Positions 1,479 through 31,776 of a stretch of 32,000 bases of DNA are shown piece by piece. A program made the position numbers and the translations under genes. The notes beneath the pieces were generated by a model. The model worked only from the letters and a program-made list of their open reading frames with translations. It was not told the origin of the DNA and did no database searches. Numbering within the stretch: the stretch's first letter is position 1; each line of letters starts with the position of its first letter. The stretch is from positions 1,020,001 to 1,052,000 of the forward strand of contig NC_017080.1 of the NCBI RefSeq assembly GCF_000284115.1. The letters are read 5' to 3'. This DNA is from Phycisphaera mikurensis NBRC 102666. GTDB taxonomy: Bacteria > Planctomycetota > Phycisphaerae > Phycisphaerales > Phycisphaeraceae.

Positions 1479-3032
1479 ATGCCGACAGATCCACCCGCCG
1501 AACGCCCGCCCGAACCCTCCCGGCCGCTCCGCGTCGGGATCCTGGGCCTGTTCCACGAGTCCAACACCTTCGCGACGCACCCGGCGACGCTGGCCGCGTT
1601 CCGCGGGTACGAGTGGTTCGAGGGCGACGCGTTGCGGGCGGCGATGGTGGACAACCACGACGAGGTCGGCGGCATGCTCGGCGGGCTCGACGAAGCCGAG
1701 GGCGTGGAGGCGGTGCCGCTGCTCTGGGCCGCGGCGCTGCCGGCGGGGGAGATCGAGCCCGAGGCGGAGGCGGCGCTCTGGGCCGCGGCCGAGCGGCAGC
1801 TCGACGCGGCGGGAGCGCTGGACGCGGTGCTGGCGGTGCCGCACGGGGCGGCGGTGGGGCGGACGCACCGCGACTTCGACGGCTGGTGGCTGACGCGGCT
1901 CCGCGAGAAGCTCGGGCGCGGTGTTCCGATCGTCGCGACGCTGGACCCGCACGCGAACGTGTCGGCTGCGATGGTCGAGGCCGCCGATGCGCTGCTGGCG
2001 TACCGGACCAACCCGCACGTCGACCAGCGCGCGATCGGCGGCCGGGCGGCACGCCTGATCCTGCGGACGCTGCGCGGGGAGGTGCGGCCGGCCACGGCTT
2101 GGGTTCCGCTTCCGCTGCTGCTGGACATCGAGCGTCAGCTCACCGACGAGCCCCCGTGCCGAGACTGGCTCGCCGAGGGTGACCGGCTCGGCGGAGGCAC
2201 CGGCGTGCTGGAGACCTCGCTGATCCTCGGCTACCCCTTTGCCGACGTGCCGGAGCTGGGCGCGGGCGTGCTGGTGGTGACCGACGCGGACCAGCGGGAC
2301 CCCGATCCCATCGCCGCGGGCTGGGCGCGGCGGATCTGGGCGGATCGCGAGCAGGCCCGGCCGCGGCTGCTCCCGGTGGAGGAGGCCGCGGCCGCGGCGG
2401 CTTCGGCCACCGGCACCTCCGGCCTGCTGGACATGGGCGACAACGTGGGCGGCGGGTCTTACGGCGACCAGACGGCGCTCGCGCACGCGCTGCTCGCCGC
2501 CGGCGCCACGCCGCTGTTCGTGAGCCTCAGAGATCCGGAAGCCCAGGCCGCCGCCCGCGCCGCGGGCGTCGGCGGGCGGGTGGACCTGCTCGCCGGCGGC
2601 CGGCACGAGCCGGCGCTCTGCGGCCCGCCGCTGCGGGTCTCCGGCGAGGTGGTGAAGCTGACCGACGGGGCCTGGACCGACCCCCAGCCGCTGCACGGCG
2701 GCCGCGTGAGGTACGCCGAGGGCCCGCTCGCCCACGTCCGCCTCGACGACGGCTCGGTGGTGCAGCTGGGCGGCGTGGCGATCTTCCCCGCCAGCCTCGG
2801 CCAGATCACGCACGCCGGCCTCGACCCCGCCGGCTTCCGCGCGATCGTCATCAAGGGCGTCCACGCCCCGGTCGCCGCCTACCGCGACGCCGTCACCCGC
2901 CTCGTCCGCGTCGACAGCCCCGGGCCGACCTCGGCCAACGCGCTGACGAGGGAGTACCGGCACCGGCCCCGGCCGATGTTCCCTTTCGAGGAAGACGCCG
3001 CGTTCCCGGTCGCCGCGGCGGCGGCGGGCTGA
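1479..3032 (+). CDS. MlrC-like M81 family metallopeptidase (microcystinase C-like)
   Basis: Track ORF 1461..3032 (GTG at 1461; first ATG at 1479). The N-terminal signature RVGILGLFHESNTF, then ATLDPHANVS and AYRTNPHVD, are typical of the MlrC N- and C-terminal domains. Confidence 0.85.
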   Translation: MPTDPPAERPPEPSRPLRVGILGLFHESNTFATHPATLAAFRGYEWFEGDALRAAMVDNHDEVGGMLGGLDEAEGVEAVPLLWAAALPAGEIEPEAEAALWAAAERQLDAAGALDAVLAVPHGAAVGRTHRDFDGWWLTRLREKLGRGVPIVATLDPHANVSAAMVEAADALLAYRTNPHVDQRAIGGRAARLILRTLRGEVRPATAWVPLPLLLDIERQLTDEPPCRDWLAEGDRLGGGTGVLETSLILGYPFADVPELGAGVLVVTDADQRDPDPIAAGWARRIWADREQARPRLLPVEEAAAAAASATGTSGLLDMGDNVGGGSYGDQTALAHALLAAGATPLFVSLRDPEAQAAARAAGVGGRVDLLAGGRHEPALCGPPLRVSGEVVKLTDGAWTDPQPLHGGRVRYAEGPLAHVRLDDGSVVQLGGVAIFPASLGQITHAGLDPAGFRAIVIKGVHAPVAAYRDAVTRLVRVDSPGPTSANALTREYRHRPRPMFPFEEDAAFPVAAAAAG

Positions 3033-3108
3033 TTCGATGCCGACACCTTCAGGTGATGAAAGCGCGACCCGGGACGACTCACTTTCTGAAGGCCTCCACC
3101 TTTGCCCG

Positions 3109-3214
3109 GGTGCCACGCCGCTTGCGGGGTGGTGGTCGCCGGAGGCGACGCCAGCGGAGACGAAGGTCGGCCGCGTGTCCTGCGGACACCCCACCCCGCA
3201 GGCGGCGTGGCACC
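3109..3214. repeat. REPIN-like element A1 (106 nt; two inverted 24-nt arms and a 58-nt spacer)
   Basis: Left arm GGTGCCACGCCGCTTGCGGGGTGG (3109-3132). Right arm CCACCCCGCAGGCGGCGTGGCACC (3191-3214) pairs at 23 of 24 positions. The spacer holds sub-hairpins GTCGCC-gga-GGCGAC and GTGTCC-tgc-GGACAC. An outer inverted repeat GGCCTCCACCTT (3091-3102) / AAGGTTGAGGCC (3256-3267) brackets it. Confidence 0.9.
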
Positions 3215-3310
3215 GACCGGACGGAGGATCCGGATCGTCCTCGAAAGAGGTGCAGAAGGTTGAGGCCTCAACGCGGTGGCCACGGGGGGCAGGGATGCCG
3301 AATGCAGGAA

Positions 3311-3358
3311 TCCGCGGACCGTCGCACCCAACCCTCCAAAACGCCGACCGTCCGCGGA
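3311..3358. terminator. Conserved-sequence hairpin (copy inside duplicated unit 1)
   Basis: TCCGCGGACCGTCG (3311-3324) pairs with CGACCGTCCGCGGA (3345-3358), a 14-bp stem with one mismatch and a 20-nt loop. Confidence 0.45.
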
Positions 3359-3379
3359 ACACGATCCCGCCGATCCGGA

Positions 3380-3472
3380 TCAACGCCGCGCCGGGCGCAC
3401 GATCAGCAGCCTCACGAACTCCTTCGGCGTGAAGACGGTGAGGCCGCCGTCGGCGTCGCGGTCGATGACCTT
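3380..3472 (-). pseudogene. Orphan 3-prime stub homologous to the end of the 3966..8072 gene
   Basis: The minus strand encodes KVIDRDADGGLTVFTPKEFVRLLIVRPARR-stop. The real gene end reads KVLDRNADGGLTVFTPKEFVRLLIVRPARR-stop. Homology stops exactly where REPIN A2 begins (3473). Confidence 0.6.
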
Positions 3473-3578
3473 GGTGCCACGCCGCTTGCGGGGTGGTGGT
3501 CGCCGGAGGCGACGCCAGCGGAGACGAAGGTCGGCCGCGTGTCCTGCGGACACCCCACCCCGCAAGCGGCGTGGCACC
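3473..3578. repeat. REPIN-like element A2 (106 nt)
   Basis: The two arms are perfectly complementary over 24/24 positions. The spacer is the same as in A1. The element sits at the junction between the two duplicated units. Confidence 0.9.
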
Positions 3579-3694
3579 GACTGAGCTCGCCGCCGCCGCC
3601 GCGGCGGCGGCGGGCTGATTCGGTGCCGACACCTTCAGGTGATGAAAGCGCGACCGGGGACGACTCACTTTCCGAAGGCCTCCACCTTTGCCCG

Positions 3695-3800
3695 GGTGCC
3701 ACGCCGCTTGCGGGGTGGTGGTCGCCGGAGGCGACGCCAGCGGAGACGAAGTGCGGCCGCGTGTCCTGCGGACACCCCACCCCGCAAGCGGCGTGGCACC
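3695..3800. repeat. REPIN-like element A3 (106 nt)
   Basis: The arms are perfectly complementary over 24/24 positions. The spacer differs from A1 only near gaagtgcggcc vs gaaggtcggcc. Confidence 0.9.
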
Positions 3801-3896
3801 GACCGGACGGAGGATCCGGATTGTCCTCGAAAGAGGTGCAGAAGGTTGAGGCCTCGAAGCGGTGGCCACGGGGGGCAGGGACGCCGAGGCCGGGAA

Positions 3897-3944
3897 TCCG
3901 CGGACCGTCGTGCCCAATCCTCGAAACCGCCGACGGTCCGCGGA
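3897..3944. terminator. Conserved-sequence hairpin, probable terminator of the 3966..8072 gene
   Basis: TCCGCGGACCGTCG (3897-3910) and CGACGGTCCGCGGA (3931-3944) form a perfect 14-bp stem with a 20-nt loop. It lies 21 nt downstream of the minus-strand stop. There is no U-tract. Confidence 0.5.
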
Positions 3945-3965
3945 ACGCGAGCCCGCCGGGCTGGA

Positions 3966-6900
3966 TCACCGCCTCGCCGGCCGCACGATGAGCAGGCGGA
4001 CGAACTCCTTCGGCGTGAAGACGGTGAGGCCGCCGTCGGCGTTGCGGTCGAGGACCTTCCGCAGGACCGGGTCGTAGACCTCGGCCTCGCCATCCACCCC
4101 CAGCCGCCCCGGGTCGAGCGACACGGTGGTGTCGAAGCTGTCGTGCGAGAAGTTCCCCACCAGCAGCAGCGCCTCGGGCGCGTCCCGCTTCATCGCGACC
4201 GAGACGAAGGCGTCGTCGGGGCGGTCGGTGGAGACGCCCACAGACGCCGCGTGGAAGAAGGGAACGAAGTCCGCGTCGCCGAAGTCCGCGAGCACCGGCG
4301 TCTGGTACGGCGCCATCCGCGTCATCATCGGCCCGGAGGTCAGCCGCTCGTCCGCGGCGGCCGCGTAGGGCGCGAAAGCCCCGTCGCGCTTGAGGTGCCC
4401 GCCGGCGCGGCCGTCCTCGTTGCCGGGGTTGTCGCCGTAGGGCATCGTCAGATACGAGCCCCAGTTCAGCAGCACGTCGCCGGTCATCAGCGTGAGGTGC
4501 CGGGCCGTCAGCTGGTAGTGCGGCGTGCCCAGCAGCATCCCGGGGTAGTGCGAGAGGTAGCGGTCGTCGGGCAGGAAGTCCCGCACCGGCTGGTCGTAGA
4601 GCCGGGTGTGGTCGAAGCCGAAGTAGAACTCCTCCTGCTCGCCGGTGACGCCCGCGGTCGCGAAGCTGCCGTAGCTCATCTCGATGCCCGGCGAGGTGTG
4701 CGGCATGAAGTCGGCGTCGTGGTCCAGGCAGAGCTTGTAGATCCGCTTGAACAGCTCGCGGTGCGCCAGCAGCGGGTAGCTGAAGCGGAGCTCGCCGTCG
4801 GGACCGATCGAGCCGGCGCCGGTGCCGAGCGACGCGTCGGGGAAGGGCAGGCCGAAGTCCAGGTGGATGAAGTCGGCGTCCATGTCGGTGAGCAGCTTCT
4901 CGATGCCCCACAGCGCGAAGTCCAGCCCCGGGCCGCTGGGCGCCAGCACGGTGTGATCGAAGGAGATGGCCAGTGGCTGGATCGACGCCTCGGCGCCGAA
5001 GTCCTTCCACGCCGGGTCGTTGATCGACATGTTCTTGAGGTAGTACGGCAGGTGCCGAACGCCCGTGGGCTCCCGCGAGGCGTGGTAGGCGGCGTAGGCC
5101 GCCTCCCGCTCCGGGCCGTCGATCTCGTACCACGGGCCGTAGAAGTCGTCCCGCGCGTGCCAGTGCACGTACACGCCGTTGACGCCGAGGCGGTGGTTCA
5201 CCTCGTGGATCTTCATCTCCGCCCGGACGTCCAGCGTGAGCTTCCCGCCGGCGAAGCGTGCCACCCGGTCGGGCACGCCGCCGGCCGACGTCTCGAGGAA
5301 GTCGTTCGGCCGGAAGCTCTCCTCCAGCGGGTCGTCGAGCAGGGCGGCGCCGCCCGCGTCGTCGATCCGCACGCGGTCGAGGACGAGCCGGCCGTCGCCG
5401 CCGAGGAGCAGCACGCCCTCGCGGAGGTCTTCCGCGGACGGCGCGACCGGCAGCGTGAGCGTCGCTTCTTCGCCGGCGCCCAGCGACGCGGCGAAGCGCG
5501 TCCCGCCGCCGGCCCGCTCCCAGCGGAGCGTCACCCGCTCGGCCTCCGCCACCGGGCCGGCGATCGCTTCCTCGCCGCCGCCGCTCCGCAGCGACAGCCG
5601 CGTCTGCCCACCGGCCTCGAGCAACCGGGCCTGCAGGCCCTCGTTCTCCGCGAGGTCCCCGAAGTCCAGCCAGAAGAGGTCGTGGTGTTCGGCGTCGAGC
5701 GTCGCCAGGTCGATGGTCAGCGACCCGCCGGCCGGGTCGAGGTTCCCGCGCAGCGGGTAGCGGAGGAAGACGCCGGGGGCGATGGACGCGGGCGGCACGC
5801 GGCCGGGCATCCACAGCGCCGGGTCCCGGGCGGGCTCCACGTCGTCGAGGTGGACGCCGTCGCGGATGCTCGAACTGCCCGCGAGCATCAGCTCGTCCCA
5901 GGGCAGCTCGAAGCGCTTGGTCGGAATCGCGATCAGCCCGAAGTCGTACCGGCTGCCGGCGGGCACGGTCGCGGCGTGGTCGAGCAGGTTCACGCGGAGG
6001 ACCCGCCGCCCGCCGGAGGCCTCGCCGATCACGATCTGCCGCTGCGGCTCTTCGTTGCGCCAGTCCCAGTCGTGCTCGGCGAACCACTCCAGCCCGTGGT
6101 CGAGGCCGTGCAGGCGGACCGTGGGCGCGAAGCTCATCGTTCGCTCGCCGTCGAGTTCGCCGCCGATCGGCCACTCGGCGGCGGTCATGGCGTCGATCGG
6201 CTTGAGACCGTTGTAGCCCCGCCAGAAGTGCGTCGCGGCGGCGGCGCGCATCGGCACCTCCAGCGCTAGCGAGGGCACCTCCGCGTCCCCCAGCGTCTCG
6301 ACCTCGAAGTGGAGGAAGCCGTCGAACTCCAGCGTGGAGCGGAGCCGCACCCGCAGCGGGCCGGCCGCGTAGACCTGCCGCCGCACGAGCCTCGCGTCGG
6401 TCCGCTCCAGCTCCTCGGCCCCGCCCTCGGGCGTGAGCGTCGCGTCGCCGGCCACCAGCCGCACGGGGGCGTCGAGCAGCGGCTGGTCGCCGCGGTCGAG
6501 CTCCACGACGACCTGCGTGGGCAGCAGCCCGTCGCCGAAGGTGTAGCGGCGGTTCGTCGTGGTGACGGCGTCGCCGTCGAAGCCCAGCGGCTCCCACGGC
6601 GGCAGCACGCCGTCGGACACGCCCAGCGTGTTGCCCGCCCACGCGGGCTTCTCGGGGATCGGCAGGTCCACCGTCCGCGTTCGGACCTCCTCGCCGCCCT
6701 TGAGCACCGCGACCTCTAGCTCGTGCGGCCCCGGCGTCAGGTCCGAGACGTCGAGCGTCACCGGCTCGTCCGCGAGGGAGCCCTCCCCTGACGCCACCGC
6801 CGCTCTGCCGTCCGCGGGCTTGAGCTCGACCCGCACGGCGTCCGCGCCGCGCAGCTCCTCGGGCAGGCCGGCGCGAGGCACGCCCACGCGGACGGTGCCG

Positions 6901-8072
6901 TCGGTCAGGAACCACCGCTTCACCTCCAGCGGGAAGGCCTCCGGCTCGCTCCAGGCGAACGGGACGTACTGCTCGTGCAGCGGGTCGTCGTAGGTCCCGT
7001 CGTTGGAGGCAAGCATCCGGGCGACGTAGCGGGCGCCCGGCACCGGGTGGTGGGTCGCGGTGATGCCGATCGACGGCTCCAGCGGCGTCACCTCCGCCGA
7101 GCCGCCCATGCTGCCCTCCTCCACCTTCGACAGCCGGTAGACCTTCCCGTCGAAGCCCATCGTGGTGAGCAGCTCCGGCATCGAGAGGACCAGCTCCGGC
7201 TCGTCGGCGGGCCCGAGCATGTCGAGGTACGCCGCCTGGAACTGATTGCCGTCGCCCAGGTGCGTCACCCCCACCTCGACCTGCACCGGCGGCACGACGT
7301 CGGCCACGCCGCCCGAGGCCGACGTTGGGAGCCGGAAGTCGGTGCGGATCGACTGGTCGTCGCGGAAGCGCAGCGTCCCCGCGCTCTGGATGCCCGCGAC
7401 GTCGCGGGCCGGGCTCCACGCCGAGAAGACGCCGCTGGGCTCGTAGCGCTTCACGTTGAAGCGCCAACGCTCGTCCTGCTCCGGCGGCCCGCCGACGACC
7501 GCCCAGGGCACCGTCATCTCGGCGGTCCACACGCCCTCCCCGACGTGCGCCGCGAAGCTCTCGTCCGGCAGGTTGGTCTCCCACCCGATGGCGGGCTCGT
7601 CACCGCCGCCCGCCACGAACGTCCCGTCGAAGAAGCCGCCGCCGGGGTTGATGATCAGGACGATCCCGGCGTCCGCGTCGGGGTGGTACAGGATCACCTC
7701 AAGAGCGTCGTCCTCCCACACCGCGCCGTCCCGCTCCGCGTCGGCCTTGAGCGGGGCGAGCGGGTTCTTCTCGGCCTCGAGCGCGAGGCGCAGCCCCTGA
7801 TCGTCGCCGGCGACCCAGACCCGGCTGTTGCGGGCGGCCCGATCCATCAGCGTCTCGGTGCTGTCGGCGGCCATGCGGCCGACGACCAGGAAGTCGCCGA
7901 AGCGGGTGGCGTTGTCCCACTCGCCGGCGTCGATCACGCCGTCGATGGCGACGGCGGCGTCCGCCAGGAGCGGGGCGGTGGTCACCGGCGGGCGGTAGTC
8001 CCGCTGCTCGGGCTCGGCGCTCGCGACCGCGGCGAGCAGGAGGGAGGCCGTGGGGAGGGAACGGTGGTTCAT
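3966..8072 (-). CDS. Large exported multidomain protein with an N-terminal CBM9-like carbohydrate-binding domain and glycoside-hydrolase-like middle and C-terminal regions (family unassigned)
   Basis: Part of track ORF 3966..8459. The start is set at ATG (complement of 8070-8072), which gives the signal peptide MNHRSLPTASLLLAAVASAEP. The N-terminal segment DGVIDAGEWDNATRFGDF ... GAVWEDDALEVILY ... WTAEMTVPWAVVGG ... RWRFNVKRY resembles CBM9/DOMON-like modules. The rest has normal, non-shadow amino-acid composition throughout. Confidence 0.8.
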   Translation of the reverse strand: MNHRSLPTASLLLAAVASAEPEQRDYRPPVTTAPLLADAAVAIDGVIDAGEWDNATRFGDFLVVGRMAADSTETLMDRAARNSRVWVAGDDQGLRLALEAEKNPLAPLKADAERDGAVWEDDALEVILYHPDADAGIVLIINPGGGFFDGTFVAGGGDEPAIGWETNLPDESFAAHVGEGVWTAEMTVPWAVVGGPPEQDERWRFNVKRYEPSGVFSAWSPARDVAGIQSAGTLRFRDDQSIRTDFRLPTSASGGVADVVPPVQVEVGVTHLGDGNQFQAAYLDMLGPADEPELVLSMPELLTTMGFDGKVYRLSKVEEGSMGGSAEVTPLEPSIGITATHHPVPGARYVARMLASNDGTYDDPLHEQYVPFAWSEPEAFPLEVKRWFLTDGTVRVGVPRAGLPEELRGADAVRVELKPADGRAAVASGEGSLADEPVTLDVSDLTPGPHELEVAVLKGGEEVRTRTVDLPIPEKPAWAGNTLGVSDGVLPPWEPLGFDGDAVTTTNRRYTFGDGLLPTQVVVELDRGDQPLLDAPVRLVAGDATLTPEGGAEELERTDARLVRRQVYAAGPLRVRLRSTLEFDGFLHFEVETLGDAEVPSLALEVPMRAAAATHFWRGYNGLKPIDAMTAAEWPIGGELDGERTMSFAPTVRLHGLDHGLEWFAEHDWDWRNEEPQRQIVIGEASGGRRVLRVNLLDHAATVPAGSRYDFGLIAIPTKRFELPWDELMLAGSSSIRDGVHLDDVEPARDPALWMPGRVPPASIAPGVFLRYPLRGNLDPAGGSLTIDLATLDAEHHDLFWLDFGDLAENEGLQARLLEAGGQTRLSLRSGGGEEAIAGPVAEAERVTLRWERAGGGTRFAASLGAGEEATLTLPVAPSAEDLREGVLLLGGDGRLVLDRVRIDDAGGAALLDDPLEESFRPNDFLETSAGGVPDRVARFAGGKLTLDVRAEMKIHEVNHRLGVNGVYVHWHARDDFYGPWYEIDGPEREAAYAAYHASREPTGVRHLPYYLKNMSINDPAWKDFGAEASIQPLAISFDHTVLAPSGPGLDFALWGIEKLLTDMDADFIHLDFGLPFPDASLGTGAGSIGPDGELRFSYPLLAHRELFKRIYKLCLDHDADFMPHTSPGIEMSYGSFATAGVTGEQEEFYFGFDHTRLYDQPVRDFLPDDRYLSHYPGMLLGTPHYQLTARHLTLMTGDVLLNWGSYLTMPYGDNPGNEDGRAGGHLKRDGAFAPYAAAADERLTSGPMMTRMAPYQTPVLADFGDADFVPFFHAASVGVSTDRPDDAFVSVAMKRDAPEALLLVGNFSHDSFDTTVSLDPGRLGVDGEAEVYDPVLRKVLDRNADGGLTVFTPKEFVRLLIVRPARR

Positions 8073-8101: not shown

Positions 8102-8149
8102 GCCGCGGACCGCCGCCGTCTGGCGGTCCCGGGAGGCGCGGTCCGCGGC
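8102..8149. repeat. Conserved-sequence hairpin in a divergent promoter region
   Basis: GCCGCGGACCGC (8102-8113) and GCGGTCCGCGGC (8138-8149) form a perfect 12-bp stem. An inner mini-hairpin CCGCC-gtct-GGCGG is present. Confidence 0.6.
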
Positions 8150-8164
8150 GGGCGGCAGGATCCG

Positions 8165-8187
8165 CTCTCGTATGATATGATGGAATT
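8165..8187 (+). promoter_or_regulatory. AT-rich island, putative promoter of the ABC importer operon
   Basis: Overlapping TATGAT hexamers (8171-8176 and 8176-8181) stand out against a very GC-rich background. The second ends 6 nt before GTG 8188. Confidence 0.3.
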
Positions 8188-10956
8188 GTGAGTTTCGCGA
8201 AACGGCACGACGGGTGGCATCGGACGGCCCTGCTCGCGACGCTTCTCGCGCTGCTTTGCCCACTCTTGGCCGGTCCCGCCGCCGCCCGGGAGCCCGCGTC
8301 GCAGCCCCGCGTGACCTTCAAGGCGCAGGGGATGCCCGTCCCCCGCAGCGTCGATCCCGCTTCGCTGGCCACCCGCGAGCTCGTGCGGATCTTCCAGGAG
8401 CGGCACCCCGGCATCGGCATCGAGGCCTTCGGGATGCCGAAGCTGCACGGGGCCGCCATGGACTCCGGTCCGCTGATGGCGATTGCCGCCGGCGTGCCGC
8501 CGCACGCGATCTACGTCAACTTCCGCCAATCCTCGACCTACATCGCGCAGGGCTTTCTCGAGCCGCTGGAGCCGCTGATGGCCCGGCTGATGTCCGACGA
8601 TCCGGAGCTCACGCGGATCGGCGAGGACGGCCGCTTCGCGGCCGAGCCGTCCGCGGAGCAGGTCGCCGCGGCGCTGTCGGTACTCAAGAGCCGCGTGGCC
8701 GACGCGGTGTGGCCGGTCGTGTACCGCGAGGGCATCGGCGAGAACCAGCAGGACGCGCACGTGTGGTCGCTGCCGCTGTCGATCATGGTCAACGTGCTGA
8801 CCTACCGAAAGGACCTCTTCGCCGAGGCGGGGCTGGACCCCGAGCGGCCGCCGGAGGACTGGGACGAGCTGCTGGCCTACGCCCGGGCCATCACCCGGCC
8901 GTCGCGGAACCAGCACGGGATGATCATGTACGGCGGGCAGTACCTCTCCTACGGGGCCTACTCGCTTCTGGTGGGCAACGGCGGGCGGGCGATGCAGCGG
9001 GGGGAGGACGGCCGGTGGCGGGCGACCTTCGATTCCCCGGAGATCGCCGAGTCGGCCGCGTTCCTGTGGAGGCTCGCCCGCGAGCCCTTCATCGCCGAGA
9101 ACGACGGCGGCCGCGTCGCCGACGGCGCTCTCCGCGTCGCGCCGGGCACGGGCGACGAGGTGGAGCTGAAGTGGGACCGGGGCCAGGTGGGGATGATCTT
9201 CGCCACCCTCAGCGACGACCTCATCTCCGCCTCCAACCCGCAGCTGGTCGGCTTCGCCCCGGTCCCCCGCAGCCCCGACGGCACCCGCGGCTCGGACATC
9301 AACGCGCGGATGCTCGGCGTGTTCTCAGGCTCGACCGACGCGCAGAAGCTCGCGGTGATGCGCTTCATCTGGTTCCTCGTTTCCGAGGAGGCCGAGCGCA
9401 TCCGCACCGAGATCTACGTCGAGAACGGCTTCGGCACCTTCGTCAACCCGATCTGGCTCGAGCGCTACGGCTTCGACGACGTGCTGGCGCAGGTGCCAGC
9501 CTCCGTCCGCGAGCTGTACGCCACCGCCTTCGAGACCGGCGTGCCCGAGCCCTACGGCCAGAACACGCAGAACATCTACCGCTTCATGTCCGAGCCGCTC
9601 ACGCAGGCCCTTGAGATGGACCTGCGGGAGCTGACGCCCGAGCAGCGCGAGGCACGCATCCAGCCGCTGCTGGACGAGGCCGTCGCCGAGACCAACGCCA
9701 AGCTGCTCGGGCGCATGACCTCCGAGGAGCGGACCCAGCGGCAGCGCGTCGGCTGGATCGCGCTGATCGTGCTGGTGGTGGCGCTGGGCGTGGCGGTGGT
9801 CACCACCTGGCGGTACTTCACCCGCTTCGCGCCGGTGGGCTCGGCCAGCGTCGGCGGCGCGCGGTGGCTGCCCTGGCTGATGCTGCTCCCGGCGGTGGGG
9901 ATCATGGCGTTCTGGATCTACGTCCCGCTGGGCTGGGCCTTCGGCCTGTCGTTCACCGACTACCGCCTGGCGATCCCCTCGCGCTTCGTCGGCGTGATGA
10001 ACTTCGCCGAGGCTCTGTACGACCCGCAGTTCTGGGCGTCGCTGGGCCGGACGCTCTACTACGTCGCGCTCCTGCTGGGGCTGGGCTTCTGGCCGCCGAT
10101 TGCGCTGGCGGTGCTGCTCGACGAGGTGCCGACCAAGACGGCCAAGTGGGTCTTCCGCGTGCTGGTCTACCTGCCGGCGATCATCAGCGGGGTCGTGGTG
10201 ATGTTCCTCTGGAAGCAGCTCTACGGCGAGACCGAGTTCGGCGTGCTCAACCAGCTGCTGCTCAAGCTCAACGCGCTCGGGCCCGTGCTCGCGACGCTGG
10301 TGAAGGTCGCGGTGTACGGCCTCTGGGGCTTCCTGCTGTGGACGGTCCTCCGCGTCGCGGCGCAGTCCGGGCAGTTCGGAATCGTCGGGCGGCTGGTGTC
10401 GGTCGGCCTTGCCGTGCTGCTCTCGCTGGCGACCGTCTGGACCGTGCTCAGCCCGGGCTTCCTCGACGCCTGGGGCGGGCCGGTCGGCGCCTTCGCCTTC
10501 GAGCCGCTGCGGTGGATCGGCTCGCCGGAGACCGCCATGTTCTGCACCGTGCTGCCGATCGTGTGGGCCTCGGCGGGCCCGGGCTGCCTGCTCTACCTCG
10601 CCGCGCTCAAGACGATCCCCGGCAGCCTCTACGAGGCCGCGGAGATCGACGGCGCCAGCCCGATGCACAAGCTGCTGCACATCACGCTCCCGCAGCTGAA
10701 GTACCTGATCGGCATCCAGTTCATCGCGGCGCTCGTGCTCGCCTTCCAGGGCGGGGCGGACTACATCCTCGCGCTCACCGGCGGCGGCCCCAACGGCGCC
10801 ACCAACATCCTGGCGCTGGAGATCTTCATGCGGACCTTCTCGGATCTGCGCTTCGGCCTGGGCACGGCGATGGCGTGGCTGCTGGGCCTGATGCTCATCG
10901 GCGTCACCGCGTACCAGCTGCGGCAGCTCGCCCGCGCCCAGTTCAGAGCCGCCTGA
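8188..10956 (+). CDS. Fused ABC-transporter solute-binding protein (family 1, CUT1-type) and MalF/UgpA-like permease
   Basis: One uninterrupted 922-aa ORF. It begins with the signal peptide MSFAKRHDGWHRTALLATLLALLCPLLAGPAAA. A roughly 500-aa SBP-like region follows (MIMYGGQYLSYGAYSLLVGNGG, MLGVFSGSTDAQKLAVMRFIWFLVS). Next comes a TM anchor VGWIALIVLVVALGVAVVTTW (9748-9810). The permease follows, with WLPWLMLLPAVGIMAFWIYVPLGWAFGLSFTDY and the EAA loop LYEAAEIDGASPMHKLLHITLPQLK. Confidence 0.85.
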   Translation: MSFAKRHDGWHRTALLATLLALLCPLLAGPAAAREPASQPRVTFKAQGMPVPRSVDPASLATRELVRIFQERHPGIGIEAFGMPKLHGAAMDSGPLMAIAAGVPPHAIYVNFRQSSTYIAQGFLEPLEPLMARLMSDDPELTRIGEDGRFAAEPSAEQVAAALSVLKSRVADAVWPVVYREGIGENQQDAHVWSLPLSIMVNVLTYRKDLFAEAGLDPERPPEDWDELLAYARAITRPSRNQHGMIMYGGQYLSYGAYSLLVGNGGRAMQRGEDGRWRATFDSPEIAESAAFLWRLAREPFIAENDGGRVADGALRVAPGTGDEVELKWDRGQVGMIFATLSDDLISASNPQLVGFAPVPRSPDGTRGSDINARMLGVFSGSTDAQKLAVMRFIWFLVSEEAERIRTEIYVENGFGTFVNPIWLERYGFDDVLAQVPASVRELYATAFETGVPEPYGQNTQNIYRFMSEPLTQALEMDLRELTPEQREARIQPLLDEAVAETNAKLLGRMTSEERTQRQRVGWIALIVLVVALGVAVVTTWRYFTRFAPVGSASVGGARWLPWLMLLPAVGIMAFWIYVPLGWAFGLSFTDYRLAIPSRFVGVMNFAEALYDPQFWASLGRTLYYVALLLGLGFWPPIALAVLLDEVPTKTAKWVFRVLVYLPAIISGVVVMFLWKQLYGETEFGVLNQLLLKLNALGPVLATLVKVAVYGLWGFLLWTVLRVAAQSGQFGIVGRLVSVGLAVLLSLATVWTVLSPGFLDAWGGPVGAFAFEPLRWIGSPETAMFCTVLPIVWASAGPGCLLYLAALKTIPGSLYEAAEIDGASPMHKLLHITLPQLKYLIGIQFIAALVLAFQGGADYILALTGGGPNGATNILALEIFMRTFSDLRFGLGTAMAWLLGLMLIGVTAYQLRQLARAQFRAA

Positions 10957-15900: not shown

Positions 15901-16112
15901 CGACCGGACCCGAGGGCGACATGACGATGGCCGGCAACGGCCTGATCGTCGTCCACGGCATGGATGCCGAGGCGGCGACGCCGCTGCGGTGGGACGGTCC
16001 GGCGGACCTGGTCGACCTCACGACGGGCGAGACGGTCGCCACCGGCACCGCGTCCGCCGAGGTGGACGTGCCCTTCGGCGAGACCAGGTGGTTCCGCCGC
16101 GAGCTGCGCTGA
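12933..16112 (+). CDS. Exported glycoside-hydrolase-like protein with an N-terminal CBM-like jelly-roll, a GH42-like TIM-barrel region and a trimerisation-like domain
   Basis: ATG at 12933 inside track ORF 12816..16112 gives the signal peptide MKPAFPVAVFSGLLAASLAAAPASA. FRAYLREIHGDDAGLREAWGDPEVTL resembles the GH42 motif region. SPSYASATFRE is also present. The later segment YPVTLLLSAVTMTPEQVSWVEDNLQRDGRVIVVFHAAG resembles the GH42 trimerisation (GATase-like) domain. Confidence 0.75.
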   Translation: MKPAFPVAVFSGLLAASLAAAPASAAEVRVEGGAARDVTRGGEALAFVVDGDALSESVTIEVDAETIGDRGRYWANLSDQPPRVLEADGGVLRWTLPWAANTGVRVEPAAEAAMAEGFDGGESWLPEGWKSDFETRGARAVRGGETAYAARPGLPLGDGEAMSVNLAEGVGRGGSGAVRVHKPTAGGEAYAWGGAAEVTPGTEYLAEAYYHVEQMAWGGMGSFSVELVNADGDSRYLSYERMNPLQDNRPDRWRRAFLRFTPRAGETMARLWLGVTAAPITLLFDDARIIEAPTAIERAGNPLPDDAGPARLSAEEVHAMLADETPRPAEVRTVRGQPTLHVDGEPVGNFSFNPGYYDWEAGQPAYHGVAGEQGVPIHTIPIALGDSLGGGDAVEDAVWQGPGDFDFSIIEERIVETLRRAPDALIRLNLSPEPYYGFHLDHPDALFRTAGGQVVTGYTHSAPLRDLAEVGDTEFVSPSYASATFRELSGDAFERVGRWLADHDLGKRVIGIHLIGGHDGQWLPHANKHGEHGMRDFGVEHVEAFRAYLREIHGDDAGLREAWGDPEVTLANALPADDAGFTADHVFFDPEVGEDRRRMDTVRFIQVGKVETIAHLLEAFDRGLGRPAFHSVYWSDVYHGHDLDHWALTELLRVDALDAVASIADYSNWRRQGRPGAISSAAASIRLHGKAFIAEVDHRTPHAWGNADANENQDWLGQIVDPLDPIHAARREWGQAMALGGGGWHYGLGGQGFAFEPYCDALGEAADAAQRLAEDPRLEADRPPVATFADERAVMAMSQRNIVNLMTAQLSANMARDPLSTSGLGYDPYLLTDLDHPDRPRYPVTLLLSAVTMTPEQVSWVEDNLQRDGRVIVVFHAAGQTHAGGVADTVDRLTGIAVEMDEKQTVSQRLRATGDDPLSEQIDFHRHETPGPLIRVVDEEAVPLATHAGREDVAAAIKRHDGWTGVYVAAPGALTPRLLRNLAAEAGVEPTGPEGDMTMAGNGLIVVHGMDAEAATPLRWDGPADLVDLTTGETVATGTASAEVDVPFGETRWFRRELR

Positions 16113-16167
16113 GCGGGCGGGCCGGGCGAGCCGGGAGGCCGGGCGGCTCCGCCCAGCGGGCCCGCGA

Positions 16168-16219
16168 GCGCCGCGGACCGGGGCCCGTTCCGGCTCCGCG
16201 GCCCCGCGGTCCGCGGCGC
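16168..16219. terminator. Conserved-sequence hairpin, probable terminator after the GH42-like gene
   Basis: GCGCCGCGGACCG-GGGC (16168-16184) pairs with GCCCCGCGGTCCGCGGCGC (16201-16219). That gives 13 bp, then 4 bp after a 2-nt bulge. Confidence 0.5.
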
Positions 16220-16472
16220 CGCATCACCGGCTCCCCAAGCCGCTGCGTCGTCGTCGGGGACCTCCAGAGGCGAGGCGTCGGCAACGAGGGCCAGATCCCC
16301 CGCCGCGGCGAAGCCCGGCACCCGGAGGATCCACGCCGCGGTGGCCCCGCCCGCCCACGATTTCCCTAAGGTGGATCGCATCGTTCATCCTTCTGGAATA
16401 GCCGGCGGGATCTCGGACGGCTTCCTTCCCGCTCCGCCCGGCGCGCGGGCACCCGCACCGCCGGTTTCCCGC

Positions 16473-17447
16473 ATGCTCGACACGCTGCCCATCGGAGAAG
16501 CGGCGGCCCTGGGCGCGGCGGCGGCGTGGGCGGTCTCGAGCATCCTCTGGGTGCGGATCGGCCTGCACGTCCGGGCGACGGTGGTGAGCCTGGTGAAGGG
16601 CGTGCTGGCGCTGGGGATGCTCGCCGCGGCGGCGTGGGCGATGGCGGTGGACTTCGGCTCGCTCTCGCCGCTGGCGCTGGGCTTCTTCGCCCTCTCGGGG
16701 GTGCTGGGCATCGGCTTCGGCGACACGCTGTACCTCGACTCGCTCAACCGCCTGGGCCCGACCCGCTCGCTGCTGGTGGCGATGCTGGCCCCGCCGCTGA
16801 CGATCCTCGGCGGCTGGGCGGTGCTGCAAGAGCGGGTGCCCCCGCTGTCGCTCTTGGGCGTGGCGGTGACGGTGGCGGGCGTCGCCTGGGTGGTGACGCG
16901 GCGGGAGCGGCCCGCGCCAAGCCCGCGGGTGCAGGCCGAGGCCGCTGCCGAGGAGGCCGCCGCCGCGGCGGAGCCCGCCGGAGCCGACGCGGCCCGCCGG
17001 TCGCTGTGGCTGGGCCTGGCGACCGGGGGCCTGGGCGCCGCGATGCAGGCCGCCAGCCTGATCGTCAACCGCTACGGGTACGCCCAGGGCGAGGCGGACG
17101 CGACGCTCACGACGATCGTCCGCATCGCCGCCGGGGTGGCGGTGCTCGCGGCTGCGCTGCCGCTGCTGGGGCGGCCCGCGGGCGCGGTGCCGGTGTGGCG
17201 GCTGGGCGGCCGGCTCTGGGGGCTGTTCGTCGCTGCGACGCTGATTGGCACCGCCGGCGGCATGGTGCTGATGCAGGTGGCGGTCGACCGCGGCCACAGC
17301 TCCGGCGTCGTGCAGACGCTGCTCTCCACCAGCCCGCTGTTCGTGATGCCCATGGTCGCGCTCACCGGCGAGCGGCTGAGCCTCTCCGCGGTGGCCGGGG
17401 CGCTGGTGGCGACCGCCGGTCTCGGGCTGCTGTTCGCGGGGCTCTGA
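16473..17447 (+). CDS. EamA/DMT-family transporter
   Basis: ATG at 16473 inside track ORF 16341..17447. The protein has about 10 hydrophobic helices in two halves separated by a charged linker RRERPAPSPRVQAEAAAEE. The segment GFGDTLYLDSLNRLGPTRSLLV is typical of EamA repeats. Confidence 0.8.
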   Translation: MLDTLPIGEAAALGAAAAWAVSSILWVRIGLHVRATVVSLVKGVLALGMLAAAAWAMAVDFGSLSPLALGFFALSGVLGIGFGDTLYLDSLNRLGPTRSLLVAMLAPPLTILGGWAVLQERVPPLSLLGVAVTVAGVAWVVTRRERPAPSPRVQAEAAAEEAAAAAEPAGADAARRSLWLGLATGGLGAAMQAASLIVNRYGYAQGEADATLTTIVRIAAGVAVLAAALPLLGRPAGAVPVWRLGGRLWGLFVAATLIGTAGGMVLMQVAVDRGHSSGVVQTLLSTSPLFVMPMVALTGERLSLSAVAGALVATAGLGLLFAGL

Positions 17448-17546
17448 CCTCCAGGTGCGACGGCCCCCGCCACCCCCCAAGGGGCGTGGCACCCGGGCAT
17501 CGGCCGATTCCGGAAGACGTGACAGGATCCGACGCTCCCGGCGCCG

Positions 17547-17623
17547 GGTGCCACGCCGCTTGCGGGGTGGTCGAGCGCCGATGGCGCCGACGGCGCCCGC
17601 CACCCCCCAAGGGGCGTGGCACC
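17547..17623. repeat. REP doublet B1 (77 nt; same left arm as family A, variant right arm, 29-nt spacer)
   Basis: The element reads GGTGCCACGCCGCTTGCGGGGTGG, then tcgagcgccgatggcgccgacggcgcccg, then CCACCCCCCAAGGGGCGTGGCACC. The arms are complementary at 22 of 24 positions. Confidence 0.9.
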
Positions 17624-17650
17624 CGGGCATCGGCCGGTCTCCCGACGCCG

Positions 17651-17726
17651 GGTGCCACGCCGCTTGCGGGGTGGTCGAGCGCCGATGAAGCCGACGGCGC
17701 CCGCCACCCTCAAGGGGCGTGGCACC
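17651..17726. repeat. REP doublet B2 (76 nt)
   Basis: Same architecture as B1, 104 nt downstream. The right arm carries a 1-nt deletion (CCACCCTCAAGGGGCGTGGCACC). Confidence 0.9.
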
Positions 17727-17852
17727 CGGGCATCGGCCGGTCTCGGGAGACGTGACAGAACCCGACGCTCCCGGCGCCGGGTGCCACGCCTCCCGCATGA
17801 GATGGCGAGATGGACCGAATGAACCCCCGGCGAAGGCCCCGCCGCAACTGTC

Positions 17853-19025
17853 CTACCGCGTCTCTTCGTCAAGGAAGGCGGCGATGCGGTCGAGGCCGGC
17901 CTGCAGGTAGTCCTCCGGCAGGCCGAAGCTCAGGCGCACGTGGTCGGGCACGCCGAGGTGGTCGCCGGGGGCCAGCAGCACGTCGTGCCGCTCGCGGAGC
18001 CTTGTGACGAACTGCCGGCTGTCCAGGTGCGGCACGTCGAAGCGCAGCAGCGTGATCGCCGCGGCGTCGTGGGGGGTGAGCGCGAGGCGGCCGCCCTGGG
18101 TGCCGATCCAACGCTCCAGCACGGCGTAGCCCTCGCGGATCAGCGTCCGCGTGCGCTCCACGACGCGGTCGCGGACCGGGGACGCCATGGCGTACGCGGC
18201 CATGTGGTTCGCGATCGTGGCGGTGCAGAGCGTCAGGTACTCGCGGCGGGCCCACATCTGGTCCACGGTGCCGGCGTCGGTGGCGGCCCAGCCGATGCGG
18301 AAGCCCGGCAGGCCGTAGGCCTTGCTGGTGCTGCCGGTGGCGATCACCTTGTCGTACGCGTCGAAGAAGCTGGGCGTGAAGTCGCCGCCGCGCCGCTCGC
18401 TGCCGCGGTACACCTCGTCGGAGAGGATCCACGCGCCCACCCGCTCCGCCTCGGTTATGACGGCGGCCATCTCCTCGGGCGTGAGCGCCCGGCCGGTCGG
18501 GTTGTTGGGGTGGCAGACCGCGATCAGCCGCGTCCGCTCCGTGACCGCCTCGCGCAGGGCGGCCAGGTCCGGGGCGAAGCCGCGGGCGGGGTCCAGCGGG
18601 AAGGTCTTGACCTGCAGCCCGTAGTTCACCGCCGCGCCGTACACCTGCTGGTAATTCGGCGACATCACCACCACCTCGTCGCCGGGGCGGGTGACGGCCG
18701 TCAGCCCCGCGAAGTTGGCCTCCACCGCGCCCACGGTGACCAGCACGTTCGACGCGTCGGCCGTCCGGTAGGTCGAGGCGATGGCCTCCCGCAGCGCCGG
18801 CAGCCCGGCGCCCGGCGCGTAGTAGAGCGAGACGTCCCGCAGCCGATCGAAGGCTCCGGGGTCGCCCTCGTACAGCTCCGCCACCGAGAGCGGGTGCACG
18901 CCGCTCTCGCTGAGGTTGTAAGCCACCTCATACTCGAACGCGCTGAGGTCGCGCTCGAGCTCGAAGGGCAGAAACGGCGGGAAGGCCGGGAACGCGGCGG
19001 CGGGCGGGGCGGCGGATGAGCTCAT
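17853..19025 (-). CDS. PLP-dependent aminotransferase, class I/II fold
   Basis: Track ORF 17853..19058, with the start taken at MSSSAAPP (complement of 19023-19025). It has the PLP-lysine motif STSKAYGLPGFRIGW, plus CHPNNPTGRAL and SPNYQQVYG. Confidence 0.85.
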   Translation of the reverse strand: MSSSAAPPAAAFPAFPPFLPFELERDLSAFEYEVAYNLSESGVHPLSVAELYEGDPGAFDRLRDVSLYYAPGAGLPALREAIASTYRTADASNVLVTVGAVEANFAGLTAVTRPGDEVVVMSPNYQQVYGAAVNYGLQVKTFPLDPARGFAPDLAALREAVTERTRLIAVCHPNNPTGRALTPEEMAAVITEAERVGAWILSDEVYRGSERRGGDFTPSFFDAYDKVIATGSTSKAYGLPGFRIGWAATDAGTVDQMWARREYLTLCTATIANHMAAYAMASPVRDRVVERTRTLIREGYAVLERWIGTQGGRLALTPHDAAAITLLRFDVPHLDSRQFVTRLRERHDVLLAPGDHLGVPDHVRLSFGLPEDYLQAGLDRIAAFLDEETR

Positions 19026-19053
19026 GGGCGTGGGGCGGGCGGGGCGTGCGTGC

Positions 19054-19096
19054 TTCAAGCATAATGAATCAAAGATTCCGCTTCTAGAAACTTTTG
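19054..19096 (-). promoter_or_regulatory. AT-rich island upstream of the aminotransferase gene (putative promoter)
   Basis: The sequence cttcaagcataatgaatcaaagattccgcttctagaaacttttg is the only AT-rich patch in this intergenic region. On the minus strand, TTCTAG, a 17-nt spacer and CATTAT are present. Confidence 0.3.
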
Positions 19097-19193
19097 CCCC
19101 GTCCGTTGTCCGTGCGCTGACCCCTGCCGCGTCTCCGGAGCGGACGACGGCGCCCGGCCGCGCTCGCCGGCGCCGCGGGCGCGGCCGGGCCCG

Positions 19194-19239
19194 CCGCGGA
19201 CCGCGGGCTCGGGAGCCGCGCCGACGCCGCGGTCCGCGG
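19194..19239. terminator. Conserved-sequence hairpin, probable terminator of the PhyH gene 19242..20081
   Basis: CCGCGGACCGCGG (19194-19206) and CCGCGGTCCGCGG (19227-19239) form a perfect 13-bp stem with a 20-nt loop. It starts 3 nt after the minus-strand stop. Confidence 0.55.
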
Positions 19240-19241
19240 GC

Positions 19242-20081
19242 TCAGGCGGCGCCCGCCGCCGCGGCGGCGTCGAAGGGCTCGCCGCAGGGGCCCCCGCCGG
19301 TGGCGTCGGCGAAGCCGCGGTGCTCGCGGCCGTCGAAGCGGAAGCAGGGCTTGTAGTGCGAGCCGATCGCCTCGGCGGAGGCGGGGGCGTAGTGGCAGAT
19401 GAAGCTGCGCCGCCAGCGGTCGGCGGTCGTGTTCGGCTTCGAGCCGTGCACCACGCTGCCGTTGAAGAACAGCACGTCCCCGGGCCCGAGCACGGCGGGC
19501 ACGGGCACCACGCCGGCGGGCGGGCGGACGAGGTCGGTGGTGAAGCTTTCGGCGGCGTCGGCGGCCTCGGGGCAGGCCACCTCCATGCCGTGCGTGCCCG
19601 GGCAGACGAACAGGCCGCCGTTCTCGGGGGTCGCGGCGTCCACCGCGGTCCAGGCGGCCACGCAGGTTTGCGGAGCCACCTTCAGGTAGAAGTTGTCCTG
19701 GTGCAGGGCCTGGCCGCGGCCGCCGGGCGGCTTGAAGTAGAACATGGACTGCGTGGCGATCGGCTCCTCGCCGAGCAGCCGGCGGAGGATCGCCCCGACC
19801 CGCGGGTCCAGCAGCATCGCCCGGCTGAGGCCGTCGATGCGGTGCGGGTGCATCACCCGCGGGTAGCGCTTCAGCGGGTCCGAGGAGTTGCGGTCGGGCT
19901 CCCAGTGGGGAGGCTGGTCGGGTGCGTTGGCGGCGAGGTCGTCGAAGCGTTCGCGGCAGGCGTCGATCTCCGCCCGCGACCACAGGCCGCGGACGATGAC
20001 GTAGCCGTCGCGCTCCCAGGCGGCGTGTTGCTCGGGGGTGAGGGCGGCGTCGGCGTGGCGGGCGGTGGCGGCGGGGGGCAT
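19242..20081 (-). CDS. Phytanoyl-CoA dioxygenase (PhyH) family Fe(II)/2-oxoglutarate oxygenase
   Basis: C-terminal 279 aa of track ORF 19242..22718, with the start at MPPAATARHADAALTPEQ (complement of 20079-20081). It has the HxD motif ALHQDNFYL, then LFFNGSVVHGSKPNTTADRWRRSFICHY. Confidence 0.85.
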   Translation of the reverse strand: MPPAATARHADAALTPEQHAAWERDGYVIVRGLWSRAEIDACRERFDDLAANAPDQPPHWEPDRNSSDPLKRYPRVMHPHRIDGLSRAMLLDPRVGAILRRLLGEEPIATQSMFYFKPPGGRGQALHQDNFYLKVAPQTCVAAWTAVDAATPENGGLFVCPGTHGMEVACPEAADAAESFTTDLVRPPAGVVPVPAVLGPGDVLFFNGSVVHGSKPNTTADRWRRSFICHYAPASAEAIGSHYKPCFRFDGREHRGFADATGGGPCGEPFDAAAAAGAA

Positions 20082-20168
20082 GGCTCGGGTTCCTGAAGGA
20101 AGCGGGTGGCGGAGAGCTCCATCATCGCCCCTCCCCGCTTCTGCACACGGTCCGCACCGGCTGGAATC

Positions 20169-21101: not shown

Positions 21102-21254
21102 CCCCGCCGCACCCGCTCGCCTCCCGTCCCACGCAACACGCCCCGCCCGCCACATACCCCCTTCCACCAAACCCCTGCCACAAGAACGCTTGGCCCCTGC
21201 GGGCCCAATGGCAGGTCGCCGACCTGCCCTACGCCTAGGCGATACCGTCGGCTC

Positions 21255-21815: not shown

Positions 21816-21853
21816 CCCCGCCGCCCCCCGTAGGGCAGGTCGGCGACCTGCCA

Positions 21854-21872
21854 TGCCGGCCGGAGGCCGGCA
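21854..21872. terminator. GC hairpin just after the RAYT gene
   Basis: TGCCGGCC-gga-GGCCGGCA forms an 8-bp stem about 40 nt after the stop at 21815. Confidence 0.35.
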
Positions 21873-22464
21873 GCGTCGGCCCACCCGATCCCCCCGCCAC
21901 CAACCCCATACCACAAGAACGCTTGGCCCCTGCGGGCCCAATGGCAGGTCGCCGACCTGCCCTACGCCTTGGCGGGGAGGCGGAAAAGGTGACAGCCACC
22001 CGACGGCGCCTCCTTCCCCTTCCCGGGTTCGAAGTGGCGACGCTCTTCGGCGTCTTGGCCTCGGTCCGCGCACCGTGAAGCGGGGGTGCCTCGGGGGCTG
22101 ATGGTCTTTGGAGCAGGCTTCCCGCTCGTCGCGCGGGAGCGGAGCGGCGGCCGGGTGCGACGGAGGGGGTTCTCGTGCTGGCCCGGCCCGCGTCGCGTTG
22201 CGACGCGGCTGGTTCGTCGTCGAGGAGGCGCGGCGTCTGCGCCTGATCGTCCCGCCGCAGCGGACCGCCGAGCAAAACGGCTTCCGGCCGCGACGGTCCG
22301 CGGCGGGCGGACGGTCTCTTCGTCGCGTGGGGGCAACCCGCGCCGGCTTGGGCAGCGGCGGGCGGAGCGGCGCGGCCTCGTTCGCAGAAGTGGTAGACTG
22401 CGTTCCGCAATCCGGAAGGAAGCAACCGGATGCACCCGTCCGTCCCACCCCGAGGTCCACCGGC

Positions 22465-31774: not shown

Positions 31775-31776
31775 AT

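Follow-up and report, generated by a model that had tools for sequence, protein, structure and literature searches.

A GGTGC-headed family of REP-type palindromes in the planctomycete Phycisphaera mikurensis

The stretch of Phycisphaera mikurensis NBRC 102666 DNA studied here (contig NC_017080.1, positions 1,020,001 to 1,052,000; 32,000 nt, hereafter the window, with positions counted from its first letter) carries four inverted-repeat elements of 106 nt, to which an earlier note had drawn attention. We find that these elements are a new family of an already known kind, the repetitive extragenic palindromic (REP) sequences, and we use the label REP-B for this family of GGTGC-headed arms. Taken together, the data are best read as a family of the type that comprises REPs, REP doublets forming hairpins (REPINs) and bacterial interspersed mosaic elements (BIMEs), with a non-canonical head and probably spread by a Y1 (HUH) transposase in trans; we put the probability of this reading at roughly 0.6, and the involvement of the transposase is inferred. 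To our knowledge, REP and REPIN families have been studied intensively in Proteobacteria but hardly at all in Planctomycetota. This planctomycete window holds at least three co-resident palindromic repeat families together with a true REP-associated tyrosine transposase (RAYT), and the RAYT gene is flanked by a family other than the GGTGC-headed one, which is locally the most abundant.

Arms, doublets and a BIME-like array

The four doublets are located at 3109-3214 (E1), 3473-3578 (E2), 3695-3800 (E3) and 25497-25602 (E4), all on the forward strand, and each is built from 24-nt inverted arms around a 58-nt spacer, with 23 or 24 of the 24 arm positions paired. The arm, GGTGCCACGCCGCTTGCGGGGTGG, starts at 3109(+), 3191(-), 3473(+), 3555(-), 3695(+), 3777(-), 25497(+) and 25579(-), each time with zero or one mismatch. 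The four doublets of the earlier note were confirmed, although its inventory overlooked an array of six further arms at 17470-17790. At up to three mismatches the whole window (G+C content 72.6%) contains 12 matches to the arm against 0.00 expected from 100 shuffles. The total over the 40.5 kb of P. mikurensis sequence that was scanned is 13 arms, and their presence at three separate intergenic loci with unrelated flanks, where chance predicts none, is among the points in favour of a REP-type family.

E1, which lies 76 nt 3' of the stop codon of an M81 peptidase gene, consists of an arm of the variant that we call Y, a 58-nt spacer with two 6-bp hairpins and an inverted Y arm with one mismatch. 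Compared with E1, E2 is 99% identical and has all 24 arm pairs, while E3, the counterpart of E1 within a duplicated unit (see below), is 97% identical. E4, starting 29 nt 3' of the stop codon of a 1121-aa gene, is 83% identical; it has retained the arms and both inner hairpins, while the central ∼24 nt have diverged, and its right flank is similar to a head-side spacer of the array at 17.5 kb. The homology between the copies has sharp limits, which coincide with the arm ends, and none of the copies has a target-site duplication or other direct repeat at its flanks. A second assembly of the same organism (GCA_014207395.1) agrees with the first 13,032 nt of the window at 0 mismatches, so that this sequence is no assembly artefact.

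Each REP-B arm (motif GGTGCCACGCC) comprises an unpaired head, SGGTGC, and the stem CACGCCGC-TT-GCGGGGTG with one G.G mismatch. In agreement with its description as a quasi-palindrome, a single arm folds as a hairpin with a 4-nt tail and a stem of 4 bp, the G.G mismatch and 3-4 bp (DNA -7.3 kcal/mol), the stability of which is not significant relative to shuffled sequences (z = -1.8). The whole element can form one long hairpin, for which the computed folding energy is -87 kcal/mol for RNA (z = -8.5) and -51 kcal/mol for DNA (z = -8.7). Both spacer hairpins that had been proposed, GTCGCC/GGCGAC and GTGTCC/GGACAC, were also found. The doublets have a head-outside orientation, and a GTGG within the arm precedes each inner spacer hairpin by 1-2 nt.

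A fold of this stability (z about -8) is what a structured small RNA gene might be expected to show, and the earlier note had listed this option. We nevertheless consider it extremely unlikely. Scans at the REP-B loci revealed no promoter-like site accompanying any element, and no terminator was found either. The elements fold equally well on both strands, and the element centre is their least conserved part. A comparison of the window with Rfam gave zero matches at the gathering threshold, so that REP-B is not an existing Rfam family; far below threshold there were only generic microRNA hairpin models (18-31 bits, thresholds 69-268) and one small nucleolar RNA model (14.8 bits, threshold 42).

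The array at 17470-17790 is the third REP-B locus and has a BIME-like layout, with its six arms in strictly alternating orientation. It contains a Z arm at 17470-17493 (-), a Y arm at 17547-17570 (+), a Z arm at 17600-17623 (-), a Y arm at 17651-17674 (+), a decayed Z arm at 17704-17726 (-) and a truncated Y head at 17780-17790 (+). This corresponds to the order Z(-) L Y(+) S Z(-) l Y(+) S Z(-) L Y(truncated), where the tail-side spacers measure 29 nt and the head-side spacers 53, 27 and 53 nt, and it includes one Y+Z doublet of 77 nt and one of 76 nt. The same arm therefore occurs with tail-side spacers of 58 nt (E1-E4) and 29 nt and with head-side spacers of 53 and 27 nt. With three different spacers around it, the conserved module is shown to be the hairpin arm and not the 106-nt unit.

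The Z variant, GGTGCCACGCCCCTTGGGGGGTGG, differs from the Y arm by a compensated change from G-C to C-G, through which the single-arm hairpin is kept while the long hairpin loses two pairs. Because the change spares the single-arm hairpin and weakens the long one, the unit under constraint would be the arm hairpin plus its unpaired head, and this would be the requirement expected of an enzyme that recognises hairpins in single-stranded DNA. A single master sequence accounts for eight of the 13 arms, a share that is inflated by local duplication. In the REPIN literature, many master-identical arms speak against a long period of decay after loss of the enzyme (bioRxiv 10.1101/2021.07.10.451892).

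Diverged members in relatives and comparison with known repeats

A near-exact arm gave 0 matches in GTDB species genomes, JGI metagenomes, IMG/VR viral contigs and PLSDB (72,556 plasmids). As a control protein encoded just outside the window matched only a 75% relative, these null results cover other species and not P. mikurensis itself. A looser arm pattern applied to the metagenomes returned 120 single chance matches and, in contig L083, the sole true doublet.

The size of the 106-nt elements, their near-perfect terminal inverted repeats and their sharp homology edges recall miniature inverted-repeat transposable elements (MITEs) of the Correia and ERIC types. The elements might accordingly be internally deleted derivatives of an insertion sequence (IS) of the DDE type that moved by means of 24-27-nt terminal inverted repeats. 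The Correia elements of Neisseria are MITEs of ∼100-150 bp with terminal inverted repeats, which are intergenic and can be transcribed into hairpins. Unlike REP-B, they have TA target duplications and non-hairpin ends, and they do not form alternating arrays of single arms. All REP-B copies are devoid of target-site duplications, whereas their arms are themselves hairpins that recur with other spacers in an alternating array. No IS with such ends is present in the window, and plasmids, viral contigs and GTDB genomes yielded no match. This makes a MITE origin highly doubtful. The MITE and small RNA readings, as well as an attC-like one, were set aside for want of target-site duplications, promoters or matching motifs.

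Diverged members were sought in ∼183 kb of Phycisphaera-like contigs by means of a covariance model, built on the four 106-nt copies, and a head-motif scan. The contigs L131/L132 have a 109-nt doublet with the Y arm GGGTGC-CACGACGC-TT-GCGTCGTG, whose stem has 8 perfect pairs, and the Z arm GGGTGC-CACGACCC-TT-GGGTCGTG, which means that the Y/Z variant pair is common to P. mikurensis and L131. An arm in L134, GGGTGC-CACGCCC-GCTC-GGGGGTG, has the same G.G mismatch as in P. mikurensis, and in L006 a 63-nt doublet with the arm CGGTGC-CACCACC-TTCA-GGTGGTG is situated between two genes that converge. The SGGTGC head and a CAC/GTG stem foot are kept in P. mikurensis, L131, L134, L006 and L083, while the stem shows compensated changes at position 4 (G.G/G-C/C-G), position 5 (C-G/A-T) and position 7 (G-C/C-G). 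The head (S)GGTGC is present in all 13 P. mikurensis arms and in those of L131, L006 and L083; one arm of L134 reads GGGCGC. REP-B was found neither at the orthologous M81/GH123 region of L003 nor in L002, sites that also differ in other respects. One GGTGC-headed doublet in L134 (L134:11095-11173) is situated inside a called 1071-aa helicase-like gene (DEAD/ResIII/DUF3427), which points to insertion of a REP within a gene or else to an artefact of gene calling.

Comparison with the REPIN-RAYT system of Pseudomonas fluorescens SBW25 (Bertels & Rainey 2011, PMC3116915) revealed a shared design: an inverted REP pair around a short spacer that folds into one long or two small hairpins, an extragenic location, family sequences that are specific to the species, and a RAYT in the same genome. 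The differences are that the REP-B head is GGTGC instead of GT[AG]G and that the RAYT gene, which is 3.5 kb away, has a different REP. The array at 17470-17790 resembles the BIMEs of Escherichia coli, whose TnpArep (PDB 4ER8; PMC3479197, PMC6006769) has a homologue here, in its Y/Z alternation and its alternating head-side and tail-side spacers, whereas the sequence is unrelated and the REP-B stem is shorter (4+4 bp around the G.G mismatch). The CGTC REPs are a superfamily with a non-GTAG head and without a dedicated flanked transposase (Di Nocera et al. 2013, PMC3733652). Published REP dimers are head-outside, have conserved spacers with two small stem-loops (as in CGTC-3 of Agrobacterium tumefaciens), form clusters as well as heterodimers whose stems differ, and are biased to convergent or unidirectional intergenic regions (PMC3733652). 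REP-B fits these dimers in all of these properties: head-outside dimers, two-stem-loop spacers, heterodimers, clusters and an intergenic bias. With the CGTC REPs it has in common a non-GTAG head and, in the sequence covered, no flanked transposase, and it differs from them in its SGGTGC head and in having been found so far only in Phycisphaera-like lineages.

When compared with published definitions, REP-B shows the short (20-40 nt) imperfect palindrome that forms a stem-loop and the species-specific sequence with a kept structure that characterise REPs. The arrangement of REPINs, two inverted REPs around a short spacer, is seen in the four 106-nt doublets and in the 77-nt and 76-nt doublets, and that of BIMEs, with two REP variants in alternating orientation and alternating spacers, at 17470-17790. 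The REPIN match that had been proposed in the earlier note held for the doublet architecture, and it was extended by the BIME-like array, a RAYT in the genome and diverged arms in relatives; where they could be tested, the features of a strict REPIN, a GT[AG]G head and a RAYT flanked by the same REP, were absent.

RAYT genes and the origin of the copies

The window contains a single RAYT gene at 21255-21815 (+), which encodes an intact Y1/HUH transposase of 186 aa from a TTG start and does not belong to the REP-B family. Besides the HUH motif DHIH, the protein has WQ and YLHMNP motifs. Its match to E. coli TnpArep (PDB 4ER8) has E = 1.9e-28, and it scores 165.8 bits with NCBIfam NF047646 (cut-off 80). 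This shows that the P. mikurensis genome encodes a bona fide RAYT. As no identical protein was present in the protein collection, the gene is apparently unannotated, having been overlooked by annotation. Two homologue searches with RAYT queries returned no P. mikurensis protein and were uninformative: because the RAYT of the window is itself unannotated, the absence of P. mikurensis from their results means little.

The gene is flanked by a GTAG-headed repeat, REP-A (GTAGGGCAGGTCGGCGACCTGCCAT), at 21208-21232(-), 21830-21854(+) and 21941-21965(-), and the 85-nt units around it are identical (21157-21241 = 21890-21974). REP-A and REP-B reside in the same genome and have a similar design, REP-A being made up of a 4-nt head and an 8-9 bp stem in doublets of ∼136 nt. 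REP-A differs in that it is canonical, GTAG-headed and directly flanks the RAYT gene, and it shares no sequence with REP-B. Homologues of the window RAYT (RAYT-1) were found in L004 and L005 (91% identity), L006 (76%) and L130 (75%). Their neighbourhoods are not syntenic, so that RAYT-1 may not be fixed in place. In the relatives, RAYT-1 and REP-A are near fragments of MmeI-like restriction-modification genes, a conserved gene of ∼190 aa, reverse transcriptase genes and IS66/IS630 genes, while the P. mikurensis RAYT gene has an AraC regulator gene and a large glycan-related gene as its neighbours.

A second clade in the group, RAYT-2, is characterised by NHVH/WQ/YIRNNP motifs, in line with subclass 2.7 of Quentin et al. 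(PMC6006769). The repeats that flank RAYT-2 are GTAGGGCGGACGGTCCCC... in L003, GTAGGGCTGGCAGTTCCTTGCCAGCC in L009, GTAGGTCCGCCACGCCGTGGCGGAC in L008, GTAGGTCTCGCACGCCGTGCGAGAC in L134 and GTAGGCCTGGCACGCCGTGCCAGGC in L131, and every RAYT gene of the relatives has REP doublets of 90-137 nt at its flanks. In L003 (L003:11540-12792; ENA ERZ25039505 contig_12359) a RAYT-2 gene of 218 aa, with 3+3 GTAG...CTAC doublets of ∼90 nt, occupies the gap that is orthologous to the M81/GH123 gap with E1-E3. This gap is therefore a repeat landing site in both lineages, where it holds different families. A possible homology of REP-B to the GTAG-headed REPs of the RAYT-2 clade was based on a 9-mer shared with the L008 REP, GCCACGCCG, and was judged too weak. 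Separately, L004 (ENA ERZ27264759 k141_544570) carries a GTAG-headed doublet of 108 nt at L004:3167-3276 with the arm GTAGTCCGCCGTCTCCGACGGGGGAC. Its architecture matches that of the 106-nt element, with 24-nt arms that each have a G.G mismatch and two inner hairpins of 6-7 bp, and, although its sequence has little identity to REP-B, the covariance model of that family gives it 64 bits.

Several observations weigh against the reading of REP-B as a REP-type family spread by a transposase in trans. Published descriptors demand an unpaired 5' tetranucleotide GT[AG]G at 0-2 nt from the hairpin foot, or else CGTC (PMC6006769, PMC3733652), and E. coli TnpArep requires the GT[AG]G head (PMC6006769); the REP-B head is GGTGC. 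Nor does the P. mikurensis arm have what the RNAMotif rule (PMC6006769) prescribes, namely 7 or more fully paired bp at the base of the stem, or else a long bulged hairpin. The window RAYT gene is flanked by REP-A rather than REP-B, and REP-A is 100% conserved beside RAYT-1 in L004, L005, L006 and L130 despite the divergence of the RAYT and the differing neighbourhoods. RAYT-2 is likewise flanked by lineage-specific GTAG-headed doublets, and no RAYT flanked by GGTGC arms was detected in 40.5 kb of P. mikurensis and 183 kb of relatives. REP-B is therefore not established as a REPIN in the strict sense, because the defining link to a RAYT flanked by the same REP is missing where it could be tested. 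The CGTC-type REPs set a precedent for a family without a dedicated transposase (PMC3733652). Covariation inside the window comes down to a single, non-significant event. The segmental duplication described below, and not transposition, accounts for two of the four 106-nt copies, and our reading builds on the copy number at the three loci of the window.

Under the reading that we favour, REP-B would have been copied in the form of single-stranded DNA hairpins by an HUH/Y1 transposase acting in trans. This enzyme might be a RAYT encoded elsewhere in the genome or, less likely, the RAYT at 21.2 kb. The copies would survive only where promoters and coding sequence are not struck, and the local arrays and the duplication with a 586-bp period would be secondary, brought about by recombination or template switching at the palindromes.

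A bolder version of this scheme, which we regard as unlikely but worth stating, is that the 'tagged' REP superfamilies GTAG and CGTC have a third counterpart, defined by SGGTGC. It would be confined to Phycisphaera-like planctomycetes, would have no transposase flanked by its own repeats, and would be copied in trans by a GTAG-type RAYT or by a mechanism not yet linked to REPs, with the palindromes driving local remodelling such as the 586-bp-period duplication. Should a REP-B-flanked transposase prove to be absent genome-wide, REP-B would be the second REP superfamily, after CGTC, to lack a known means of spread, and it would lend itself well to testing the stringency with which RAYTs recognise the head tetranucleotide.

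Convergent gene ends and a segmental duplication

Genes were placed on the basis of third-position G+C content, matches to Pfam and the gene calls available for locus L001. All three REP-B loci turned out to be convergent intergenic regions at gene 3' ends, as had been noted before for the four doublets. These regions are 3033-3965, between the M81 peptidase gene (1479-3032), whose product is 100% identical to a known P. mikurensis protein, and a GH123-like gene; 17448-17852, between an EamA gene and an aminotransferase gene; and 25468-25715, between the 1121-aa gene and an MGH1-like hydrolase gene. The elements begin 22-76 nt 3' of a stop codon, and three of the four convergent intergenic regions of the window carry REP-B, the fourth (28415-28542) having none.

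This location would suit RNA hairpins that the host selects as bidirectional transcription barriers or 3'-end stabilisers, and that recombination has spread or homogenised without any transposase. The stability of the hairpins is very high on either strand, scans of 2900-4100 and 16000-32000 detected no canonical terminators around the loci, and mRNA stabilisation and transcription termination are known effects of E. coli REPs (PMC6006769). However, no copy is followed by a U-tract, and the same scans found no terminator-like site at any REP-B locus, so that the terminator function suggested earlier gained no support. Selection for RNA hairpins also leaves unexplained the near-identical sequence across loci, the conserved unpaired head and the redundancy of arrays of 3-6 arms. 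It does not account for a Z variant that weakens the long hairpin while keeping the single-arm hairpin, nor for the convergent region without an element. We therefore think it improbable, though far from negligible, that RNA-level selection caused the repetition. In the REP-type reading with copying in trans, hairpins that are transcribed within 3' untranslated regions may also stabilise or delimit transcripts, as E. coli REPs do, but this would be a side effect and not the cause of the repetition.

The three clustered copies proved to belong to a duplication with a period of 586 bp. Unit A (3011-3472) opens with the final 22 nt of the M81 gene, followed by 76 nt, by E1 and by a further 165 nt, and closes with a copy of the 3'-terminal 93 nt of the GH123-like gene (30 codons plus stop). 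Unit B (3597-4058) has the same content with E3 in place of E1, and on its right it closes with the genuine 3' end of the GH123-like gene, which spans 3966-8072 on the minus strand. The units are 462 bp each and, depending on the segment, 88-97% identical, while E2 and 18 further nt exactly fill the join between them. Since E1 and E3 are within the duplicated unit and E2 is at the join, the clustered copies do not represent three independent insertions, and one segmental duplication plus a join-point copy replaces the repeated insertion that had been assumed.

At this join, an imperfect palindrome of 55 nt (3573-3627) combines the end of the right arm of E2 (GGCACC), ∼25 nt of the 3' tail of the M81 gene in inverted orientation, the same tail in direct orientation and GGTGCC, and it is centred on a self-complementary GCC/GGC tract. 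The structure of the join and the palindromic tract suggest template switching or recombination at palindromes. The GH123-like fragment at 3380-3472 has kept its frame and stop relative to the live copy at 3966-4058 (minus strand), from which it differs by 6 synonymous and 2 non-synonymous codon differences. Such an intact frame is odd for a dead copy and may reflect recombination with a diverged allele. A decayed relic of a sister REP, GGTGCCGACACCTTCAGGTGATG, lies at 3622-3648 (+), 4 nt after the M81 stop, with its twin in unit A at 3036-3062 (compare GGTGCCACCACCTTCAGGTGGTG of L006). A tblastn search of 3033-3965 detected no RAYT remnant.

The duplication raises the question whether REP-B is a purely local duplication without a genome-wide family. 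E1 and E3 are indeed copies within one 462-bp unit, the array at 17.5 kb has the appearance of a Z-L-Y-S unit amplified in place, and a search with element-encoded peptides recovered the local open reading frame (ORF) alone. That search was without power, as it missed even E4. The three loci are 14 kb and 8 kb apart and have unrelated flanks and different spacers, and diverged members exist in at least four other lineages. A purely local origin is accordingly very unlikely.

REP-B elements enlarge convergent intergenic regions, mark a segmental duplication and cause spurious ORF calls. A 150-aa database 'protein' (P0355; window 3539-3991 (+), L001:12061-12513) is such a spurious ORF, running through E3 and a member of the third palindromic family. 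This family, CCGCGGACCG ... CGGTCCGCGG with a variable loop of 8-25 nt, is present in several intergenic contexts of the window (3308-3357, 3894-3943, 8102-8150, 16170-16218, 19189-19239 and 31773-31822). It is conserved at gene 3' flanks in relatives (L002:1631-1684, L002:2130-2175 and L003:6745-6792), and it may be the real terminator-like hairpin of the lineage or a protein-binding site. Elsewhere in the window, 8176-10956 (+) is a single ORF of 926 codons in which an extracellular solute-binding domain (SBP_bac_1) and an ABC permease domain (BPD_transp_1) are fused. This unusual fusion is called as one 874-aa gene in L001 and corresponds to two separate genes in the relative L002.

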